From Escherichia coli (GTDB taxonomy: Bacteria > Pseudomonadota > Gammaproteobacteria > Enterobacterales > Enterobacteriaceae), in assembly GCF_024700885.2 (NCBI RefSeq), contig NZ_CP117016.1: 64,000 nucleotides of DNA. One strand, 5' to 3'. Shown piece by piece: positions 28,706 through 37,343 of the stretch. The translations under genes and the position numbers were made by a program. The first letter of the stretch is position 1. Each line of letters starts with the position of its first letter. The notes under the pieces were generated by a model, which worked only from the letters and a program-made list of their open reading frames with translations, made no database searches and was not told where the DNA came from.

Positions 28706-29305
28706 ATGCGTAAATTATGTGCTGTTATTCTGTCCACAGTAGTCTGGCTGGTCGCCGCTGGTACGCCAGCGAGCGCAGCAGAGCATCAGTCCACACTAAG
28801 CGCCGGGTATCTTCAGACCCATACTGATATGCCCGGCAACGATGACCTGAAGGGCATTAACGTGAAATACCGTTATGAATTTACGGACACGCTGGGGCTG
28901 GTGACGTCATTCAGTTATGCCAATGCCAAAGATGAGCAAAAAACGCATTACAGCGATACCCGCTGGCATGAAGATTCAGTGCGTAACCGCTGGTTCAGCA
29001 TGATGGCGGGGCCGTCTGTACGCGTGAATGAATGGTTCAGTGCTTATGCGATGGCAGGTGTGGCTTACAGCCGTGTTTCGACTTTTTCCGGGGATTATCT
29101 CCGCGTAACTGACAGCAAGGGGAAAACGCACGATGTGCTGACCGGAAGTGATGACGGTCGCCACAGCAACACGTCTCTGGCGTGGGGGGCTGGCGTGCAG
29201 TTTAACCCGACCGAATCCGTGGCCATTGATATTGCTTATGAAGGCTCCGGCAGTGGTGACTGGCGCACTGACGGTTTCATCGTGGGTGTCGGTTATAAAT
29301 TCTGA
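28706..29305 (+). CDS. lom: Lom outer-membrane protein (Ail/Lom family)
   Basis: Signal peptide then beta-barrel pattern, C-terminal aromatic residue (GVGYKF). Confidence 0.8.
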   Translation: MRKLCAVILSTVVWLVAAGTPASAAEHQSTLSAGYLQTHTDMPGNDDLKGINVKYRYEFTDTLGLVTSFSYANAKDEQKTHYSDTRWHEDSVRNRWFSMMAGPSVRVNEWFSAYAMAGVAYSRVSTFSGDYLRVTDSKGKTHDVLTGSDDGRHSNTSLAWGAGVQFNPTESVAIDIAYEGSGSGDWRTDGFIVGVGYKF

Positions 29306-29331
29306 TTAGCCAGGTAACACAGTGTTATGAC

Positions 29332-29358
29332 AGCCCGCCGGTTCAGGCGGGCTTTTTT
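29332..29358 (+). terminator. Rho-independent terminator after lom
   Basis: AGCCCGCCggttcaGGCGGGCT followed by TTTTTTG. Confidence 0.6.
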
Positions 29359-29369
29359 GTGGAGTGGAT

Positions 29370-31769
29370 ATGGCAGCAGTAAAAATCTCAGGTGTGCTGA
29401 AAGATGGTGCGGGAAAACCAATACAGAACTGCACTATTCAACTGAAGGCAAAGCGTAACAGCACCACGGTACTGGTGAACACGGTGGCCTCTGAAAATCC
29501 TGATGAAGCCGGGCGTTACAGCATGGATGTTGAGTATGGCCAGTACAGCGTCACCCTGCTGGTTGAAGGTTTTCCGCCTTCACATGCCGGGACCATTACC
29601 GTCTATGAAGGCTCCAGACCAGGTACGCTGAATGATTTTCTCGGTGCCATGACGGAAGATGATGTCATGCCGGAGGCATTGCGTCGTTTTGAGGCAATGG
29701 TGGAAGAAGTGGCACGCAACGCCGAAGCCGCCTCTCAGAGCGCAGCGGCGGCAAAGAAATCCGAAACTGCAGCGGCATCATCAAAGAACGCGGCGAAAAC
29801 CTCAGAAACGAATGCAGCTAATAGTGCACAGGCGGCAGCGACCTCAAAGACTGCATCGGCAAACTCCGCGACAGCAGCCAAAAAATCAGAAACCAACGCG
29901 AAAAATAGCGAGACAGCCGCAAAGACGAGCGAAACCAACGCAAAGTCCAGCCAGACGGCAGCGAAAACCAGCGAAACGAATGCCAAAGCCAGTGAAACTG
30001 CGGCAAAAAACAGCCAGGTTGCAGCAGCCCAAAGCGAGAGCGCGGCAGCCGGTTCTGCGACTTCAGCAGCTGGATCAGCAACTGCTGCGGCTAACAGCCA
30101 GAAAGCTGCGAAGACGAGTGAAACTAACGCAAAGTCCAGCCAGACGGCAGCGAAGACCAGCGAAACGAATGCCAAAACCAGCGAAACTGCGGCGAAAAAC
30201 AGTCAGGATGCAGCAGCCCAAAGCGAGAGTGCCGCAGCTGGTTCTGCAAGTGCGGCGGCTTCTTCTGCCACTGCATCAGCCAACAGTCAAAAAGCTGCAA
30301 AAACCAGTGAAACCAACGCAAAGGCGAGCGAGACTGCGGCGGCTAACTCGGCGAAAGCATCCGCTGCAAGCCAGACGGCAGCTAAAGCAAGTGAAGATGC
30401 AGCCAGAGAGTACGCAAGCCAGGCTGCGGAGCCGTATAAACAAGTTTTGCAGCCGCTTCCCGATGTGTGGATACCGTTTAACGATTCACTGGATATGATT
30501 ACGGGCTTTTCGCCGTCATATAAAAAGATTGTTATTGGTGATGATGAAATAACGATGCCTGGCGATAAGGTTGTAAAGTTTAAACGCGCATCAACTGCCA
30601 CATATATCAATAAATCAGGCGTATTTAGTGTTGCTAAAATTGATGAGCCACGATTTGAAAAAGAAGGTTTATTGATTGAAGGACAGCGCACTAACTATTT
30701 TGTTAAATCCAATATCCCCGCTGAATGGACGAGTACCAGCAATATCGATAAAACTAATAATGGTGTTGATGAATTTGGTTTTTCATATGCCAAAATGCGA
30801 ACAAAAGATAATATGACAGGACAATCATCTGCACTTAGTCTGCATACATGCAGTGCATCCCGGGGGATTGATGTTAGTGGCGATAATAAGTATTGCACTG
30901 TTTCATGCAGGGTTAAAGCTCCTGATGGTCTTCGTTGTCGTTTGCGTTTTGAAAAATACGATGGGTCGGTTTATACATTTTTAGGAGATGCTTATTTAAC
31001 TTTCGGAACTCTGATAATAGAAAAAACTGGCGGAGCAGCCAATAGAATAGCAGCTACTGCAACTAAAGATCCGGTTACAGGGTGGATTTTCTATGAGGCA
31101 ACTATAGAAGCTGTTGAAGGTGAAACCTTAATTGGCGCAATGATTCAGTATGCGCCGAAAAAAGGTGGTGTAACTGAAGCGGGAGATTATATTTACCTTG
31201 CAACACCACAATTTGAAAACGGCGGATGTGCTTCATCTTTTGTTATTACGACAACTGTACCCGCAACCCGCTCCAGTGATATGGTGACGATCCCAACTGA
31301 AAATAATATCTATAATAGACCGCTTACGTGCCTGGTCGAGGTTAATAGAAATTGGGGCGATATTCCTCCTAATGTAGCACCGCGTATTTTTGATTTTTCT
31401 GGTGTGCCACCTATTGAGTCAATTACATACGCTTTTAACACAACTGAGAAATATTACGGTCAGCTTTATATGCAAACTTATAAAGCGTCGACAAGTACTT
31501 ACGTTTCTAGTGTGTTTGCTGGTCGAACTGATGTTCGAAAATTCATTGGTGGTTTTAATATTTATTCTGATGGTACTAAACGAGTAGTTTCTAACGGTGA
31601 GGCTACTAAAACTATGAAAACGGAGTGGACGGGCGTAAAAACACGGACCTTTATTCGAATTGGAGGTCAAGCCACATCGGGAACTCGTCATCTATTCGGC
31701 CATTTGAGAAATCTTCGTCTCTGGCATAAAGAATTAACTGATGCGCAAATGGGGGAGAGTATTAAATGA
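29370..31769 (+). CDS. Side tail fibre protein with repetitive Ala/Lys/Thr/Ser shaft and low-GC C-terminal domain
   Basis: N-terminal conserved tail-fibre start (AAVKISGVLKDGAGKPIQNCTIQLKA); repeats AAKTSETNAK; C-terminal ~400 aa markedly AT-rich. Confidence 0.7.
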   Translation: MAAVKISGVLKDGAGKPIQNCTIQLKAKRNSTTVLVNTVASENPDEAGRYSMDVEYGQYSVTLLVEGFPPSHAGTITVYEGSRPGTLNDFLGAMTEDDVMPEALRRFEAMVEEVARNAEAASQSAAAAKKSETAAASSKNAAKTSETNAANSAQAAATSKTASANSATAAKKSETNAKNSETAAKTSETNAKSSQTAAKTSETNAKASETAAKNSQVAAAQSESAAAGSATSAAGSATAAANSQKAAKTSETNAKSSQTAAKTSETNAKTSETAAKNSQDAAAQSESAAAGSASAAASSATASANSQKAAKTSETNAKASETAAANSAKASAASQTAAKASEDAAREYASQAAEPYKQVLQPLPDVWIPFNDSLDMITGFSPSYKKIVIGDDEITMPGDKVVKFKRASTATYINKSGVFSVAKIDEPRFEKEGLLIEGQRTNYFVKSNIPAEWTSTSNIDKTNNGVDEFGFSYAKMRTKDNMTGQSSALSLHTCSASRGIDVSGDNKYCTVSCRVKAPDGLRCRLRFEKYDGSVYTFLGDAYLTFGTLIIEKTGGAANRIAATATKDPVTGWIFYEATIEAVEGETLIGAMIQYAPKKGGVTEAGDYIYLATPQFENGGCASSFVITTTVPATRSSDMVTIPTENNIYNRPLTCLVEVNRNWGDIPPNVAPRIFDFSGVPPIESITYAFNTTEKYYGQLYMQTYKASTSTYVSSVFAGRTDVRKFIGGFNIYSDGTKRVVSNGEATKTMKTEWTGVKTRTFIRIGGQATSGTRHLFGHLRNLRLWHKELTDAQMGESIK
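29740..30330. repeat. Coding tandem repeats in tail fibre gene
   Basis: Two imperfect ~200-bp tandem units (about 29920-30110 and 30122-30310) plus shorter ~24-bp sub-repeats encoding AAKTSETNAK. Confidence 0.6.
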
Positions 31770-32047
31770 AAGATTTAACACTCAAATTTGCAGACAGGGC
31801 CGACTTTTCGGCCTTTATGGAGAGTATTGGCTATTATGATGACGAGTCGATGCAGGATGATATTCTTATTGACGTGATAGGTAACGTGTACAAAGAAACC
31901 GGAGAACTGACTGAAGATGGCGAACCGGTATGTGTTAAGGAAGACGGATATTTTGTAAACGTGCGCATCATTAATGATGTGAAAACACCGTCAATATTCG
32001 ATGAATACGTGGTTGCTGTTGAGCATCAACTTCGTGGCTGGATGTGA
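31766..32047 (+). CDS. Hypothetical acidic protein in tail-fibre module
   Basis: 93-aa ORF, start overlaps stf stop, AT-rich. Confidence 0.3.
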   Translation: MKDLTLKFADRADFSAFMESIGYYDDESMQDDILIDVIGNVYKETGELTEDGEPVCVKEDGYFVNVRIINDVKTPSIFDEYVVAVEHQLRGWM

Positions 32048-32056
32048 GGAAGAAAA

Positions 32057-32761
32057 ATGGCTACATCGACAGTAATTCCAGGAGATATCACCACGCTAAA
32101 GGGAGATGTCAGTAAAACTAAGGAAGATATTTCCTCAATTAACGGAAAAGTATCAACGCTTCAGACTGATATGACCAGTGCAAAGCAGGATATCAGCACC
32201 AGATACACAAAAACTGAAGTTGATAATAAGCTGAAAAACAAAGTGGAAGTGAACGATCTGGAAAGTGGTCGTTATGGCGGAGATTTTTATCCACTGACAG
32301 GTCGTGAAGCGTTTTATTTATGGAATTTGGCCACGACTACAGCGGCGGCAAACCTTTATCTTAATCCTGACCCCGCAATTTCGTCTGTGCTGCGGTCAAC
32401 ATCGTCTATCCGCTATAAACATTCAGTAGAGACAATAGATTCAGAGCACGCTGATCTCATTTTCAGGATGCGCCCTGTGTGGTACAGGTCACAATGCGAA
32501 AATGACAGGCGTGACTGGGGATTCTACGGATTGATTGCCGAGGAAGTAGGAGAAATTGCCCCTCAGTTTGTACACTGGCGACCAGCTAACGAAGATGATG
32601 CTCCTGAAGCTATTTCCAGCAATGGCCTTGTTGCCGAAGGTGTAATGTACGAACGTCTGGTTGTTCCACTGATTCACCATATCCAGAAGCTGACTGAAAG
32701 AGTTGATGAACTTGAGTCAGAATTAAAGTTGTTATTAACTTCCCGAAGCGATATCGGATAA
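32057..32761 (+). CDS. Tail-fibre-type protein with S74-like intramolecular chaperone domain
   Basis: N-terminal coiled coil then S74-like segment (SSIRYKHSVETID...MRPVWY...DWGFYGLIAEEVGEIAPQFVH...LVAEGVMYERLVVPLIHHIQKL). Confidence 0.5.
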   Translation: MATSTVIPGDITTLKGDVSKTKEDISSINGKVSTLQTDMTSAKQDISTRYTKTEVDNKLKNKVEVNDLESGRYGGDFYPLTGREAFYLWNLATTTAAANLYLNPDPAISSVLRSTSSIRYKHSVETIDSEHADLIFRMRPVWYRSQCENDRRDWGFYGLIAEEVGEIAPQFVHWRPANEDDAPEAISSNGLVAEGVMYERLVVPLIHHIQKLTERVDELESELKLLLTSRSDIG

Positions 32762-32771
32762 AGGAGGAATA

Positions 32772-33059
32772 ATGGATATAACACCTTTCCTTCATGCACT
32801 TTGTGCTGTGGCTGCGCAGGTACTGGTTGGTCTTTTTACCGGAAACTGGGCTTACGGGGCGATAGCCGGTTGTACGTTCTTCATTGCGCGTGAACACACC
32901 CAGGCAGAATATCGCTGGATCGAAATGTTCGGGCATGGCAAGCGAATGAATATGCCGTGGTGGGGCGGTTTTGATACACGTGCATGGGATGTGGCAAGCC
33001 TGATGGATTTTGCTGTGCCGGTGGTGGCGTGTCTGCTGATCTGGCTGTTGATCCGTTAA
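32772..33059 (+). CDS. Small membrane protein, unknown function
   Basis: 95 aa with 2-3 hydrophobic segments; RBS AAGGAGG. Confidence 0.3.
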   Translation: MDITPFLHALCAVAAQVLVGLFTGNWAYGAIAGCTFFIAREHTQAEYRWIEMFGHGKRMNMPWWGGFDTRAWDVASLMDFAVPVVACLLIWLLIR

Positions 33060-33061
33060 AT

Positions 33062-33110
33062 ATAAAAAGCCGCAGTAACTTGCCATGGCAGGATACTGCG
33101 GCTGGTTTGT
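33062..33110. terminator. Bidirectional terminator between tail-fibre module and RT gene
   Basis: 10-bp stem AGCCGCAGTA/TACTGCGGCT (33068-33103) with A-run before and T-rich run after. Confidence 0.45.
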
Positions 33111-33166
33111 GAGTTTAAATAGTGTGTTTATTGCGGTATATTTAAAGGACTTAATGGATTACATAT

Positions 33167-34537
33167 CTATGATATTCCTGAGATATCCTCTTCAAGCTCT
33201 TTTACTGATTTCGCAATTTTAAATTTAAACTTCCTCTCTATTTCACTATTGCTAAGTTTTTTTTCCTTCTCTTTACCTATCCACATAGAAACAAGTTCTC
33301 GTTTCTGAGATATATGTAAATTATCAAAGTTAGGTATGTATTTAAAAGTCTCCGCTCTACCTCTGCGGAGTTCATAGAAAGTTTTAATCAAAGACTTTGG
33401 TTTTATTTCTGATGAAAGGCCGAATCGGTGGATAAGATTATTGATAGTATGATTAACAGAGCGAAGTTGAGCTGTTGAGGTTATTTGTGAGAAGTACGAT
33501 ACCCATCCCAATCGTTTACCTTCAAACACACATCCCGTAATTCTGAGATTTAGTTTCCACTGACAATATGCAACAGCTCGTTCTTTATCACGCTTACTTT
33601 TAGCTTGTAGTAGAGCGTGCCTGTATGCAGTAAAAATCCTTGCTAAAGATGACTCAAATCTAAGAATGCTCTCATGTTTTATCAATAATTCTCGATTTTC
33701 TATGTGGTATCCCAAAAAGTTAAAACTTTCATCCAAGCTGCCTACTTTGGATTTTGAGTTCTCTTCATTTAATGGATGTGGGTTTAAATTTAATGATTGA
33801 AGCTTATCAATGATATGAGAAGCTATTTTTGTTGCTTGATATTTTGGTGTTAAAATAAGAATGTCATCAACGTATCGCATGTACCATATGTCATGCATTT
33901 TATTGATTTCATCATCAAAATTAGATAGTGATATTTCAGCTAAAATGTTTGATATCGCTAATCCCTGAGGTACCCCTCTGGTATTATTCGGGATACCTTT
34001 GCTTCCTGTTGTTCCACTTACAGTAGGCACGATTAATGATGATGTTATTAACTGTCTAATTTCTTTTTTTCTAATTTTATTTTTTATTGTATTAATTATC
34101 AATTTATGTTCAATTGAAGGATAGAAACTTTTAAGATCTATTTTTGCATATTCAGCATAAAGACTGCTGTTTAATGCTTCTTTCAATGAGTCAATTACTG
34201 TATGTGGTAGTTTTAATCTGGAGTTAGGATATATTTCCGTAAGGCATTCACAGAGAGTTCTAAGAGTAATTCTGTCCCTAGCAGTTGGTATGGAAATCTG
34301 TCTGGGTGTAGAGTTAGCGCCTTTAGATATTAATTTTTCTTTATATGCTGTAAATTTGTAATTGCCAGAGTTAACCTTTTCAAAAATGAAAGCGATCTCA
34401 TTTTTTATTGTCAAATCAAGTTTTGATGGGCGAATCCGATCTATGCCAATCGCTCCTGATTCTTTGATTTTTTCAGTGTATACTTTTAGAAGGTTTTTTT
34501 TCGAGAATGACTTTTTAAAAATTCTGCTTGCAGTCAT
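33167..34537 (-). CDS. Reverse transcriptase (defence-associated type, unclassified)
   Basis: Ordered RT motifs: RQISIPTARDRITLRTL, KIDLKSFYPSIEH, GVPQGLAISNILAEISLS, YMRYVDDILIL, FNFLGYHI; ~30% GC; alternative TTG start at 34543. Confidence 0.8.
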   Translation of the reverse strand: MTASRIFKKSFSKKNLLKVYTEKIKESGAIGIDRIRPSKLDLTIKNEIAFIFEKVNSGNYKFTAYKEKLISKGANSTPRQISIPTARDRITLRTLCECLTEIYPNSRLKLPHTVIDSLKEALNSSLYAEYAKIDLKSFYPSIEHKLIINTIKNKIRKKEIRQLITSSLIVPTVSGTTGSKGIPNNTRGVPQGLAISNILAEISLSNFDDEINKMHDIWYMRYVDDILILTPKYQATKIASHIIDKLQSLNLNPHPLNEENSKSKVGSLDESFNFLGYHIENRELLIKHESILRFESSLARIFTAYRHALLQAKSKRDKERAVAYCQWKLNLRITGCVFEGKRLGWVSYFSQITSTAQLRSVNHTINNLIHRFGLSSEIKPKSLIKTFYELRRGRAETFKYIPNFDNLHISQKRELVSMWIGKEKEKKLSNSEIERKFKFKIAKSVKELEEDISGIS

Positions 34538-35066
34538 AGTCAATCCAAAGATATATTAATGGGAGTATATAAAGGGCGGCAGTAGTAAATATTCGAAGTA
34601 ATATCCATAAAATAACAATTATTTTTTCTTTTTGTGTGGGGATCCTCGTCGTAAGTCCAACTTGAGTTACCCTTGAAATTTTATCATCTATGTCACGGTG
34701 ATTCTCAACCTCATTGAGCAAATTAAAATATTTTTCTTTCTGTTCAAGAGTTAACTGTTGACTGGTGGTAATGTCAAAATAGAGTCGCTGTAGTGCAATA
34801 TAATTCCTTCTCATGGCTATTGCTCGACCACGAAAATCTAGGTTAGATACGATCAGCGAAATACCCAGTAGGGCCACCGAAAGTATTGCCGCAACGATAT
34901 CTGTGTTATCTCCTAGAACTTTTGGAAATCGCAACGTTACAATTGAAAGTACCGCACTCAATATAGCATACCAAACGAGGATAAATTGAGAGTGCTTTTC
35001 AAGCCATTCTAGTCGATGGTGCGCTTGGATACGGGCTTTATATGTAAACCAAATATTGTCATGCAT
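34515..35066 (-). CDS. Small multi-TM membrane protein, candidate effector partner of RT
   Basis: 183 aa; hydrophobic helices FILVWYAILSAVLSIVTL, IVAAILSVALLGISLIVSNL, IIVILWILLRIFTTAALYILPLIYLWI; 3' end overlaps RT start; RBS AAGGA. Confidence 0.6.
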   Translation of the reverse strand: MHDNIWFTYKARIQAHHRLEWLEKHSQFILVWYAILSAVLSIVTLRFPKVLGDNTDIVAAILSVALLGISLIVSNLDFRGRAIAMRRNYIALQRLYFDITTSQQLTLEQKEKYFNLLNEVENHRDIDDKISRVTQVGLTTRIPTQKEKIIVILWILLRIFTTAALYILPLIYLWIDYDCKQNF

Positions 35067-35288
35067 AAAAGATCCTTTTTAAAAGCGGAAGGGGCAGGAT
35101 ATATTGGAATCATTGAACATCCTGCCCGGCAGGATCAGTGAGCATAAGCTCAACAGTAAAATATTACTGTTCATTATCAGAGCCGCCCTTGCATGCACAA
35201 GAGGAAAAACCTGCCCCATCCTTTTGAATTATTACAATTTAATGATCTTAAAGTCAATACAAGTGAATGGTGTCCAGAGATGATGAAC
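35067..35288 (-). promoter_or_regulatory. Structured leader upstream of membrane-protein/RT operon
   Basis: Three copies of GGGGCAGG/CCTGCCCC in alternating orientation; hairpin ending ~25 nt before start codon. Confidence 0.3.
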
Positions 35289-35537
35289 TTAATGAACAAA
35301 CCACTCGTCAGCAGACTCCCAGGTATCTTTCAGAGTTTCCTGAACAAAAGTTTTAGCTGAATCTTTATCGGCGGTGCGCGTAACAGAAAGGCCATCGTTG
35401 CTGGTGGCTTTTACGATCACCTCTACATCGTCATAACGCTTACTGATGCGTCGAGTTAATTCTTCCTTTAACGCATCCACAGCACCGCTTGGCATTTTAG
35501 TCATTTTCTCTTTAGCTATGCAGATCTCAATACGCAT
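35289..35537 (-). CDS. DinI-like protein
   Basis: 82 aa; MRIEI...AKEK...LPAGA-DAL--EL-RRI...[10 protein letters not shown] pattern of the DinI family. Confidence 0.75.
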
Positions 35538-35550
35538 AAAAATCCCTCTA

Positions 35551-35598
35551 CACTGTGTTTGTATACAGTGTTATTTTTAACTGTATGAATAAACAGTG
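35551..35598 (-). promoter_or_regulatory. Two tandem LexA (SOS) boxes in dinI-like promoter
   Basis: CACTGTgtttgtatACAGTG (35551-35570) and AACTGTatgaataaACAGTG (35579-35598), both CTGT-N8-ACAG, 14-61 nt upstream of the start codon. Confidence 0.6.
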
Positions 35599-35617
35599 TC
35601 AATAGAACAAAGATTGC

Positions 35618-35740
35618 TGCATGTACAAATGTTCTTTGGCTACAAATACACCTACTGATCATGTTCTGCTATGCTCTGATACCTCCAAAATGTACAATCA
35701 GCGGCATGAATTTTTCTTTGTACATATGATTGTACATAAT
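35618..35740. repeat. TGTACA hexamer array in phage-derived prfC upstream region
   Basis: TGTACA at 35622, 35691, 35719, 35731; last two as direct repeat TTGTACATA separated by 3 nt. Confidence 0.4.
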
Positions 35741-35756
35741 TAAAGAGACAACAATT

Positions 35757-35830
35757 ATGACAAGCCTTTTGGCCGCAGAGGTAGCGAAAAGAAGAACCTT
35801 TGCAATTATTTCTCACCCGGACGCCGGTAA
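35757..35830. other. Inferred attR / prophage-chromosome junction within 5' end of prfC
   Basis: prfC N-terminus reads [15 protein letters not shown], differing from the canonical RF3 N-terminus as I recall it, then converges on conserved sequence. Confidence 0.4.
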
Positions 35831-37343
35831 GACTACCATCACCGAGAAGGTGCTGCTGTTCGGACAGGCCATTCAGACCGCCGGTACAGTAAAAGGCCGT
35901 GGTTCCAACCAGCACGCTAAGTCGGACTGGATGGAGATGGAAAAGCAGCGTGGGATCTCCATTACTACTTCTGTGATGCAGTTTCCGTATCACGATTGCC
36001 TGGTTAACCTGCTCGACACCCCGGGGCACGAAGACTTCTCGGAAGATACCTATCGTACCCTGACGGCGGTGGACTGCTGCCTGATGGTTATCGACGCTGC
36101 AAAAGGTGTTGAAGATCGTACCCGTAAGCTGATGGAAGTTACCCGTCTGCGCGACACGCCGATCCTCACCTTTATGAACAAACTTGACCGTGATATCCGC
36201 GACCCGATGGAGCTGCTCGATGAAGTTGAGAACGAGCTGAAAATCGGCTGCGCACCGATCACCTGGCCGATTGGCTGCGGCAAGCTGTTTAAAGGCGTTT
36301 ACCACCTTTATAAAGATGAAACCTATCTCTATCAGAGCGGTAAAGGCCACACGATTCAGGAAGTCCGCATTGTCAAAGGGCTGAATAACCCGGATCTCGA
36401 CGCTGCGGTTGGTGAAGATCTGGCACAGCAGCTACGTGACGAACTGGAACTGGTGAAAGGCGCGTCTAACGAGTTCGACAAAGAGCTGTTCCTTGCGGGC
36501 GAAATCACTCCGGTATTCTTCGGTACTGCGCTGGGTAACTTCGGCGTTGATCATATGCTGGATGGCCTGGTGGAGTGGGCCCCTGCGCCGATGCCGCGTC
36601 AGACTGATACCCGTACCGTAGAGGCGAGCGAAGACAAATTTACCGGCTTCGTATTTAAAATTCAGGCCAACATGGACCCGAAACACCGCGACCGCGTGGC
36701 GTTTATGCGCGTGGTATCCGGTAAATATGAAAAAGGCATGAAGCTGCGCCAGGTGCGCACTGCGAAAGATGTGGTGATCTCCGACGCGCTGACCTTTATG
36801 GCGGGTGACCGTTCGCACGTTGAAGAAGCGTATCCTGGCGATATCCTTGGTCTGCACAACCACGGCACCATTCAGATCGGCGACACCTTTACCCAGGGTG
36901 AGATGATGAAGTTCACCGGTATTCCGAACTTCGCACCAGAACTGTTCCGTCGTATCCGCCTGAAAGATCCGCTGAAGCAAAAACAGCTACTCAAAGGGCT
37001 GGTACAGCTTTCCGAAGAGGGCGCGGTGCAGGTGTTCCGTCCGATCTCCAACAACGATCTGATCGTTGGTGCAGTTGGTGTGCTGCAGTTTGATGTGGTG
37101 GTAGCGCGTCTGAAGAGCGAATACAACGTTGAAGCAGTGTATGAGTCAGTCAACGTTGCCACTGCCCGCTGGGTAGAATGTGCGGACGCGAAGAAATTCG
37201 AAGAGTTCAAGCGTAAGAACGAAAGCCAACTGGCGCTTGATGGCGGCGATAACCTCGCTTACATCGCTACCAGCATGGTCAACCTGCGCCTGGCGCAGGA
37301 ACGTTATCCGGACGTTCAGTTCCACCAGACCCGCGAGCATTAA
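35757..37343 (+). CDS. prfC: Peptide chain release factor 3 (RF3), 5' end phage-supplied
   Basis: 528 aa; GTPase G1 motif [17 protein letters not shown]; full-length RF3. Confidence 0.9.

Follow-up and report, generated by a model that had tools for sequence, protein, structure and literature searches.

The locus analyzed here is very probably a complete DRT10 (UG17) system carried on a prophage and a natural allele of Eco3DRT10. [quoted passage not shown] The window is a stretch of 64,000 nt from Escherichia coli (NZ_CP117016.1). The system itself is already known, as Eco3DRT10 is an E. coli phage defense system in print in 2025-2026; the family received the name UG17 in 2021-2022 and was renamed DRT10 in 2025, when phage defense was demonstrated for it (Tang et al. 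2025, PMC12632851). The preliminary description of this DNA had proposed an RT-based anti-phage defense operon, which is borne out by matches to the RT_UG17 and RTasSLATT profiles and by near-identity to Eco3DRT10; its view that the operon is of unassigned type, possibly an uncharacterized variant, no longer stands, as the family is UG17/DRT10 and the locus is an allele of the dissected prototype. It had also counted two genes, and while the RT and the membrane protein are real, the third essential part, the upstream ncRNA, was overlooked; the ncRNA and its promoter (35085-35257) lie beyond the interval first described. The published functional elements (promoter, ncRNA, template, boundary hairpin, priming serine, and terminator) can now be placed on window coordinates (Table 1). 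The gene order, SLATT and then RT, in a proteobacterial host fits the UG17-A group.

Table 1. Elements of the putative DRT10 locus, in window coordinates.
Feature	Coordinates	Strand	Basis
Sigma-70-type promoter of ncRNA	35228..35257	-	Consensus scan, 10/12 matches plus TG motif
DRT10 ncRNA, 137 nt	35085..35221	-	Published numbering; Eco3 identity; fold
SL5 hairpin AUCCUGC-CGG-GCAGGAU	35119..35135	-	MFE and centroid structures
Template A-B-A'	35103..35115	-	Direct reading and reverse complement
SLATT_5 membrane effector (putative), 183 aa	34515..35066	-	PADLOC, NCBIfam, and Pfam profiles
UG17/DRT10 RT, 456 aa	33167..34537	-	RT_UG17 profile; Eco3 identity
Intrinsic terminator, operon end	33057..33103	-	RNA fold

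The RT reading frame encodes 456 aa from its ATG, or 458 aa from a TTG at 34543. For the Eco3DRT10 RT (OKX54664), Tang et al. (PMC12632851) favored the ATG, which lies two codons downstream of the annotated start; the annotated start with its two extra residues is shared by the RT here and OKX54664. All RT motif strings quoted in the preliminary description were found in the translation, with YVDD at residues 222 to 225 (window 33863-33874). In the PADLOC profile search, RT_UG17 matched residues 1 to 456 over model positions 1 to 429 of 429 (E 2.1e-158, 525.7 bits), compared with 126.4 bits for the second-best model, Drt3a; Pfam RVT_1 was also matched (E 2e-20). What had been described as a C-terminal extension of about 180 aa is present, but according to the cryo-EM paper on Eco3DRT10 it consists of the thumb and the C-terminal domain with the priming serine. 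The C terminus reads ...EEDISGIS, so that Ser456 is the final residue (codon 33170-33172), and it corresponds to the published priming residue. Both YVDD and the C-terminal ...ISGIS were present in 6 of 6 alleles examined.

The partner gene encodes 183 aa, shares 23 nt with the start of the RT gene, and has an AGGA ribosome-binding site 6 nt before its ATG; hydropathy analysis placed three hydrophobic segments at approximately residues 25-48, 54-79, and 147-175. Its product matched PADLOC RTasSLATT (E 7.9e-57, 189.8 bits), NCBIfam SLATT_5 (132.9 bits, cut-off 60), and Pfam PF18160 (E 5.5e-28). Going by these profiles it is a SLATT_5 protein of the "RT-associated SLATT" kind, and the earlier suggestion of a SLATT-type partner was a sound one, the SLATT_5 score being above the curated NCBIfam cut-off.

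The boundaries of the ncRNA were set by the published numbering (U43, G44, U110, G111, C116, A117, and U119), and all of these bases coincide with the right letters here; the RNA is identical to LRLX01000203.1, the source contig of Eco3DRT10, at 137/137 positions. Its minimum free energy is -54 kcal/mol (z -4.66; 0 of 200 shuffles folded as well), and the predicted fold, a basal stem (SL1) around inner hairpins and two single-stranded loops (Loop A, ~35182-35172; Loop B, ~35118-35099), matches the published basal stem, inner hairpins, and template loop. The SL5 hairpin occupies ncRNA positions 87-103, and the template, at 107-119, starts four nucleotides 3' of it; in Eco3DRT10, SL5 is the 5' template-boundary element, and scrambling it abolished repeat synthesis (Tang et al., PMC12632851). 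The template is made up of A (CAAU, 35115-35112), B (GAUUC, 35111-35107), and A' (CAAU, 35106-35103), and copying of the 9-nt A-B (CAAUGAUUC) gives the cDNA repeat 5'-GAATCATTG-3', in agreement with the published Eco3DRT10 repeat and A-B-A' description. Rfam returned no family for the ncRNA, either in an E-value scan of 32000-37000 (E <= 1) or when the whole window was scanned at the gathering threshold; as DRT10 is not among the models of Rfam 15, the null result is not evidence against the ncRNA. The ncRNA call rests on identity to the published RNA and on the fold, not on independent covariation, as only about 7 ncRNA positions vary among the E. coli alleles, too few for such an analysis. 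One of the allelic changes, U25 to C25 opposite G30, keeps the pair, and another, G12 to U, disrupts the pair at the top of SL1.

The promoter has a -35 element TTGACT, an 18-nt spacer, and an extended -10 element TG-n-AATAAT that ends 7 nt before ncRNA position 1; we infer promoter function from this placement with respect to the 5' end of the published RNA. The SLATT ATG follows the ncRNA 3' end with only 18 nt in between, and for this reason the ncRNA promoter probably serves SLATT and RT as well, by read-through. At the other end, a hairpin at 33103-33068 (dG -21.3 kcal/mol, z -4.05) is followed by a U-tract at 33067-33057 (UUUUUAUAUUU, RT strand); this terminator escaped a simple terminator scan because its loop is long. 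It had been called bidirectional, but on the plus strand the T-tract is weak and the term applies only loosely.

Eco3DRT10 comes from E. coli 703491 (LRLX01000203.1; Tang et al. 2025, PMC12632851) and has been the subject of a second study (Ramirez et al. 2026, bioRxiv 10.64898/2026.06.29.735271); we reached its contig through the exact Eco3 SLATT protein. The two loci share a neighborhood (osmY, prfC, DinI, SLATT, RT, and tail-fiber genes), whereas the left-hand tail-fiber genes have diverged. Window positions 35969-34742 are identical to the Eco3 contig base by base, and the ncRNA and promoter are therefore 100% identical to those of Eco3; YVDD, Ser456, and the template CAAUGAUUC-CAAU are likewise shared. 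SLATT and RT differ from the contig at only 5 nt. The RT is identical to OKX54664 at 453/456 residues (99.3%), with the differences A94T, A150T, and R370H; SLATT is identical at 182/183, with the difference R109Q; and one further change is silent. The four non-synonymous changes are derived and were unseen in five other alleles sampled. Other E. coli alleles (for example, MS6193, SCAID WND1-2021, 200088, and CT265) have a 94-98% identical module in which ncRNA, SLATT, and RT are arranged alike; it occupies the right end of a lambdoid prophage, beside a DinI-like gene, and these alleles keep YVDD and the C-terminal serine. Some of these prophages sit at yecD/aspS rather than prfC, some of the records annotate a frameshift in the DinI-like gene, and the CT265 SLATT gene differs at both ends (a downstream annotated start and a stop at codon 181). 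The template of the 94-98% alleles is CAACGGUUC-CAAU, and their predicted repeat is therefore GAACCGTTG; as natural history, close alleles thus vary in the template sequence itself.

The setting is that of prophage cargo. GC content is 32.9% in the RT gene and 37.1% in the SLATT gene, compared with 52.8-53.2% in the rest of the window; the low-GC character noted at the outset is real, but the quoted value of ~30% was too low, the measured one being nearer 33-37%. The module lies between the tail-fiber genes and the DinI-like gene, which agrees with the proposed placement at the prophage end, and since K-12 homology starts at 35777, the prophage/host junction is located within the 5' end of prfC. 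Among 5,426 complete E. coli genomes, 187 (3.4%) carry the module, in every case on the chromosome, at the right end of lambdoid prophages and at no fewer than two integration sites. A megablast search of a phage collection gave no match to the module, which was seen only in bacterial chromosomes, as prophage cargo. The promoter of the DinI-like gene is SOS controlled, with two LexA-box-like palindromes; it shares its strand with the ncRNA and precedes it by ~300 nt, with no terminator predicted between them; DNA damage or prophage induction could therefore boost ncRNA, SLATT, and RT by read-through. That DRT10 is coupled to the SOS response in this way, or that the allele is tuned, with its four substitutions shifting self-toxicity or phage range, strikes us as rather unlikely, and either would, if true, add a modest regulatory or allelic detail to what is known of the system.

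Because of the near-identity to Eco3DRT10, we take the published mechanism to apply here. Eco3DRT10 carries out protein-primed, telomerase-like synthesis of tandem-repeat single-stranded DNA on its ncRNA, as established by miniprep-seq, in vitro reconstitution, and cryo-EM; cDNA synthesis is constitutive, and defense, which covers many coliphages and was shown with BASEL phages, is lost unless SLATT, the ncRNA, Ser456, and an active RT site are all present. By extension from what has been shown for Eco3DRT10, two RT monomers would sit on one pseudo-symmetric ncRNA. In the Loop B monomer, the hydroxyl of its own C-terminal Ser456 would prime DNA synthesis starting opposite C116; the 9-nt template would be copied up to the SL5 boundary, and the new DNA 3' end would then re-anneal to the downstream CAAU, repeated cycles giving kilobase-long, protein-linked single-stranded (GAATCATTG)n, which is the predicted product of the allele here. 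The Loop A monomer would make a product of only ~10 nt. Phage resistance dependent on RT, ncRNA, and SLATT is likewise attributed to this allele by transfer at 99% identity. SLATT would act as the effector, with an altered cDNA state leading to permeabilization of the membrane and abortion of the infection. As to how the cDNA acts on SLATT, we lean toward activation, in which free or accumulated repeat ssDNA would activate SLATT and the host exonuclease SbcB (ExoI) would normally hold the ssDNA below threshold. Activation is favored because RT-dead systems are nontoxic and loss of sbcB is lethal only with RT, ncRNA, and SLATT intact; these SbcB genetics come from the DRT10 homologues E3659 and H120, not from Eco3.

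The opposite arrangement, in which repeat ssDNA neutralizes a toxic SLATT oligomer and a drop in cDNA on infection frees it, was proposed by Tang et al. (PMC12632851), who saw Eco3DRT10 cDNA fall after Bas18 infection. Reports on cDNA levels conflict, however, as those of E3659 rise on infection, and the fall may be a mere by-product of infection. Restraint also predicts the opposite of what is seen in a homologue, whose toxicity in delta-sbcB cells needs an active RT and the ncRNA, and SLATT-intact constructs with a dead RT (YVAA) or a deleted ncRNA lose defense with no toxicity reported; we therefore consider restraint unlikely and retain activation. It is less likely still that the allele is attenuated or inactive, with RT or SLATT weakened by its four derived changes, which could, for instance, have been selected because DRT10 is toxic to its own host. 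Of the five nucleotide differences from Eco3, four are non-synonymous, each of them G-to-A on the coding strand, and T94, T150, and H370 were among the residues missing from the other alleles. Against this, every catalytic and priming residue is kept, neither the ncRNA nor the promoter is altered, and the two ORFs run their full length; of the changed positions, at least the first two vary in two distant UG17 homologues (Tang et al. Table S1); and the same allele is found, 100% identical, in four complete genomes.

That the RT belongs to a different class altogether, such as a retron (RT with a 2TM effector and msDNA), a group II intron, a DGR, a CRISPR-associated RT, or DRT3, has a probability close to zero. 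Among solved structures, group II intron RTs come nearest to the RT by sequence (best PDB hits at E 2e-13); the copy of the PDB searched contained neither a DRT10 RT nor a SLATT_5 structure. Weak profile matches fell well below their cut-offs: group II intron maturase TIGR04416 scored 140.5 bits (cut-off 300), Drt3a NF041747 112 bits (cut-off 200), and the retron St85 RT 58.3 bits (cut-off 235). The corresponding partner elements were also missing. Neither an intron RNA nor a retron RNA appeared in the Rfam scans, and over 32000-37000 no RNA family of any kind matched at E <= 1; DRT3 pairs UG3 with UG8, whereas the locus has one RT gene and no UG8; and near the RT there is neither an integrase nor a Cas gene nor a DGR TR/VR pair, as the preliminary description had stated, the sole repeats in 29000-36000 being in-frame tandem repeats in a tail-fiber gene (29862-30341). 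The ncRNA, moreover, is identical to one that templates protein-primed tandem repeats, not msDNA.

The UG17-A system of Escherichia sp. E3659 (Sanchez-Nieto et al. 2026, bioRxiv 10.64898/2026.04.29.721553) is, like the locus here, a tightly coupled tripartite ncRNA-SLATT-RT system, with constitutive tandem-repeat cDNA and three parts that are all needed for defense; it differs in its 7-nt repeats, its 143-nt ncRNA with six stem-loops, its rise in cDNA on infection, and in that links to SbcB and to an SSB-like trigger were demonstrated in E3659 and not in Eco3. The RT-SLATT system of the H120 prophage (Rousset et al. 2021; UG17-B) also pairs a UG17 RT with SLATT on an E. coli prophage, and it renders sbcB essential. 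We considered whether the H120 locus is the module described here and rejected this, because in H120 the RT gene precedes the SLATT gene and the proteins have other accessions (WP_000344414.1 and WP_001352776.1). Farther afield, DRT9 (UG28) and telomerase (TERT/TR) resemble DRT10 in the iterative copying of a short template within a structured ncRNA. DRT9 is also protein-primed, but it works as a hexamer and primes on tyrosines to make poly-dA. The significance of DRT10, already in print, is that of a bacterial RT with a telomerase-like way of working and perhaps a common origin with telomerase. In both, a template is combined with an alignment region and a boundary element, whereas telomerase is far larger, uses a DNA primer, and extends chromosome ends.

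Profile searches placed the reverse transcriptase (RT) in UG17: the PADLOC model RT_UG17 covered it in full (E = 2.1e-158, 525.7 bits), with Drt3a the second-best PADLOC model at 126.4 bits. Its scores against the NCBIfam models for group II intron maturase (140.5 bits; curated cut-off, 300), Drt3a (112 bits; cut-off, 200), Drt2 (76.5 bits; cut-off, 390), and retron St85 (58.3 bits; cut-off, 235) all fell far below threshold, and RVT_1 was its sole Pfam match. Readings of the locus as a retron, group II intron, DGR, CRISPR-RT, or DRT3 each failed their defining tests. The partner, for which a SLATT-type identity had been raised in the preliminary description, is an "RT-associated SLATT" (E = 7.9e-57), scoring 132.9 bits against NCBIfam SLATT_5 (cut-off, 60) and E = 5.5e-28 against Pfam SLATT_5. 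UG17 was defined in 2021-2022, when its strong linkage to SLATT proteins was already remarked; Tang et al. (PMC12632851) reported in October 2025 that UG17 operons protect E. coli from phage and named them DRT10, a tripartite system of noncoding RNA (ncRNA), SLATT, and RT, and two 2026 preprints have extended this work (bioRxiv 10.64898/2026.06.29.735271; 10.64898/2026.04.29.721553). Gene order is reversed at H120, the sbcB-interacting locus, which is a different system. The locus is real but already known, an allele of the prototype Eco3DRT10, and the "unassigned type" first given to it does not stand.

What the preliminary description observed of the two genes was otherwise confirmed. Every RT palm motif it quoted was found in translation, with YVDD at residues 222 to 225 (33863-33874); the two ORFs lie where described and overlap by 23 nt; and the SLATT protein has three hydrophobic segments (residues ~25-48, 54-79, and 147-175). 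The low GC content was likewise borne out (RT, 32.9%; SLATT, 37.1%; versus ~53% in the remaining window), as was a terminator closing the operon on the RT strand, where the hairpin 33103-33068 precedes UUUUUAUAUUU (ΔG, -21.3 kcal/mol; z, -4.05). The extent then reported, 33167-35066, takes in both ORFs but ends before the essential third component, the ncRNA.

Tang et al. (PMC12632851) described an RT-bound, 137-nt ncRNA upstream of SLATT, in which U110 is the fourth base of template segment A, G111 lies in B, and C116, A117, and U119 lie in A'; Ramirez et al. (bioRxiv 10.64898/2026.06.29.735271) added U43 and G44 of Loop A. When the ncRNA ends were set by anchoring C107 on the window sequence CAATGATTCCAAT, all published numbered bases matched window nucleotides. 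The A-B-A' template (35103-35115) reads CAAU-GAUUC-CAAU, and the reverse complement of A-B, GAATCATTG, is the published Eco3 repeat. The 137-mer (minimum free energy, -54 kcal/mol; z, -4.66) folds in prediction into a GC-rich basal stem around four hairpins, with a single-stranded loop directly after the hairpin AUCCUGC-CGG-GCAGGAU, and this fold matches the described architecture. GGCAGG(AU) and (AU)CCUGCC each occur twice in the ncRNA, so an alternative fold is possible in which the 3' arm of SL5, the template-boundary hairpin, pairs with the 3' strand of SL1, the basal stem; this becomes the centroid once 9 extra flanking nt are added. Past the ncRNA 3' end comes UUUU, and 18 nt on stands the SLATT ATG, which has an AGGA ribosome-binding site. 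This leaves scant space for a separate SLATT promoter downstream of the ncRNA, and transcription of SLATT and RT is inferred to rely on read-through.

Features of the DRT10 module and its prophage surroundings (positions in the window)
Feature	Position	Strand	Remarks
isrK Hfq-binding sRNA	528-604	plus	Rfam 58.9 bits, above gathering score
C4 antisense RNA	629-716	plus	Rfam 80.7 bits, above gathering score
Tail-fibre gene	29364-31769	plus	repeats at 29862-30341
Small conserved phage ORF	31766-32047	plus	phrog_1361, 93 aa
Peptidase_S74-type tail-fibre gene	32057-32761		between phrog_1361 and phrog_1443 ORFs
Small conserved phage ORF	32772-33059	plus	phrog_1443, 95 aa, with hydrophobic segments
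RT ORF	33167-34537	minus	456 aa from ATG, 458 aa from TTG at 34543
SLATT ORF	34515-35066	minus	183 aa
ncRNA	35085-35221	minus	position 1 at 35221, position 137 at 35085 (published numbering)
ncRNA promoter			TTGACT / extended -10 AATAAT; ends 7 nt before ncRNA position 1
DinI-like gene	35289-35537	minus
LexA-box-like palindromes	35553-35570 and 35579-35598		CACTGTATACAAACACAG and AACTGTATGAATAAACAG; upstream of DinI-like gene
Substitutions versus Eco3DRT10	34741; 34258; 34090; 33429		SLATT R109Q; RT A94T; RT A150T; RT R370H
Silent change versus Eco3DRT10	33974

Homology to K-12 starts at 35777, 20 nt within prfC (ATG at 35757), indicating that the prophage integrated into the prfC 5' end. The prophage supplies a new prfC N-terminus, the K-12 start being encoded by ATGACGTTGTCTCC; prophage sequence takes the place of the native ribosome-binding site and promoter of release factor 3, as well as of its first ~7 codons (35538-35756 and 35757-35777). 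This junction makes the DinI-like gene and the DRT10 module the final prophage genes before attR, which supports the earlier view of the module as prophage cargo. Both LexA-box-like palindromes fall across the TTGACA/AAAAAT promoter that serves the DinI-like gene; one of them was scored by the terminator scan as a plus-strand "terminator" (35550-35571). Since no terminator is predicted from the DinI-like gene to the ncRNA promoter, SOS-induced read-through into the module is conceivable. The isrK and C4 matches lie within the early or regulatory region of the prophage.

The 2.2-kb module was present in 187 of 5,426 complete E. coli genomes, always on the chromosome (≥99% identity, n = 33; 95-99%, n = 81; 90-95%, n = 73), and had no match in the phage-genome collection. 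In representative loci the module sits in a lambdoid prophage, integrated at prfC or at yecD/aspS, and always between tail-fibre/tail-fibre-assembly genes and a DinI-like gene. Natural alleles of the module, 94-98% identical, carry the template CAACGGUUC-CAAU versus CAAUGAUUC-CAAU in the window, and closely related prophages are therefore predicted to produce distinct repeat DNAs, GAACCGTTG and GAATCATTG. As published, the B segment and the fourth base of A tolerate change, and the CAACGGUUC template accords with this.

By its identity with Eco3DRT10, the window module would act as the prototype does. In Eco3DRT10, a single pseudo-symmetric ncRNA carries two RT monomers; the Loop B monomer starts opposite C116 from the hydroxyl of the C-terminal Ser456, copies to the SL5 boundary, realigns on A', and repeats, yielding kilobase-long, protein-linked single-stranded DNA (ssDNA), while Loop A gives only a ~10-nt product; defence is lost with YVAA, S456A, SLATT deletion, or ncRNA deletion (PMC12632851; bioRxiv 10.64898/2026.06.29.735271). 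What engages SLATT is read in two ways. Tang et al. (PMC12632851) observed that cDNA falls after infection and proposed that cDNA restrains SLATT, which we consider unlikely, as RT-dead constructs are non-toxic and toxicity upon loss of a 3'-5' ssDNA exonuclease depends on the RT. For another homologue, Sanchez-Nieto et al. (bioRxiv 10.64898/2026.04.29.721553) found that cDNA rises after infection and that ΔsbcB lethality requires RT, ncRNA, and SLATT jointly, and identified a phage trigger that is SSB-like. The same non-toxicity and RT dependence make it more probable, in our inference, that repeat ssDNA, accumulated or free, activates SLATT.

The Eco3DRT10 RT is OKX54664 on LRLX01000203.1 (Tang et al. 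supplement, PMC12632851), a contig of E. coli 703491 that we located via the exact Eco3 SLATT sequence. Gene order there is the same as in the window: osmY, prfC, DinI, SLATT, RT, a 95-aa ORF, a Peptidase_S74 tail-fibre gene, a 93-aa ORF, and a tail fibre. The tail-fibre genes left of the module (31515-32700) diverge far more than the module does, and left of ~31720 the two sequences cannot be aligned, which indicates that host-range genes have undergone mosaic exchange around a defence cassette that is conserved. In the window's tail-fibre gene at 29364-31769, the repeats are in frame with a 21-nt period, plus a 189-nt tandem duplication, and encode Ala/Ser/Thr-rich heptads (KTSETNAKSSQTAA); the FDAARGOS_536 record, identical in other respects, annotates this gene with a frameshift. 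The first two residues of OKX54664 as given from its database start are spurious, and S458 is accordingly renumbered S456 (Tang et al., PMC12632851); the window RT has the same TTG/ATG ambiguity. Base by base, 35969-34742 is without differences from the prototype contig, and SLATT and RT together differ at only five nucleotides, four of them non-synonymous and all four G-to-A on the coding strand. The RT is identical to that of Eco3DRT10 at 453 of 456 residues (A94T, A150T, and R370H; states unique among the six alleles compared) and SLATT at 182 of 183 (R109Q), and none of the five further alleles sampled has any of these four derived substitutions.
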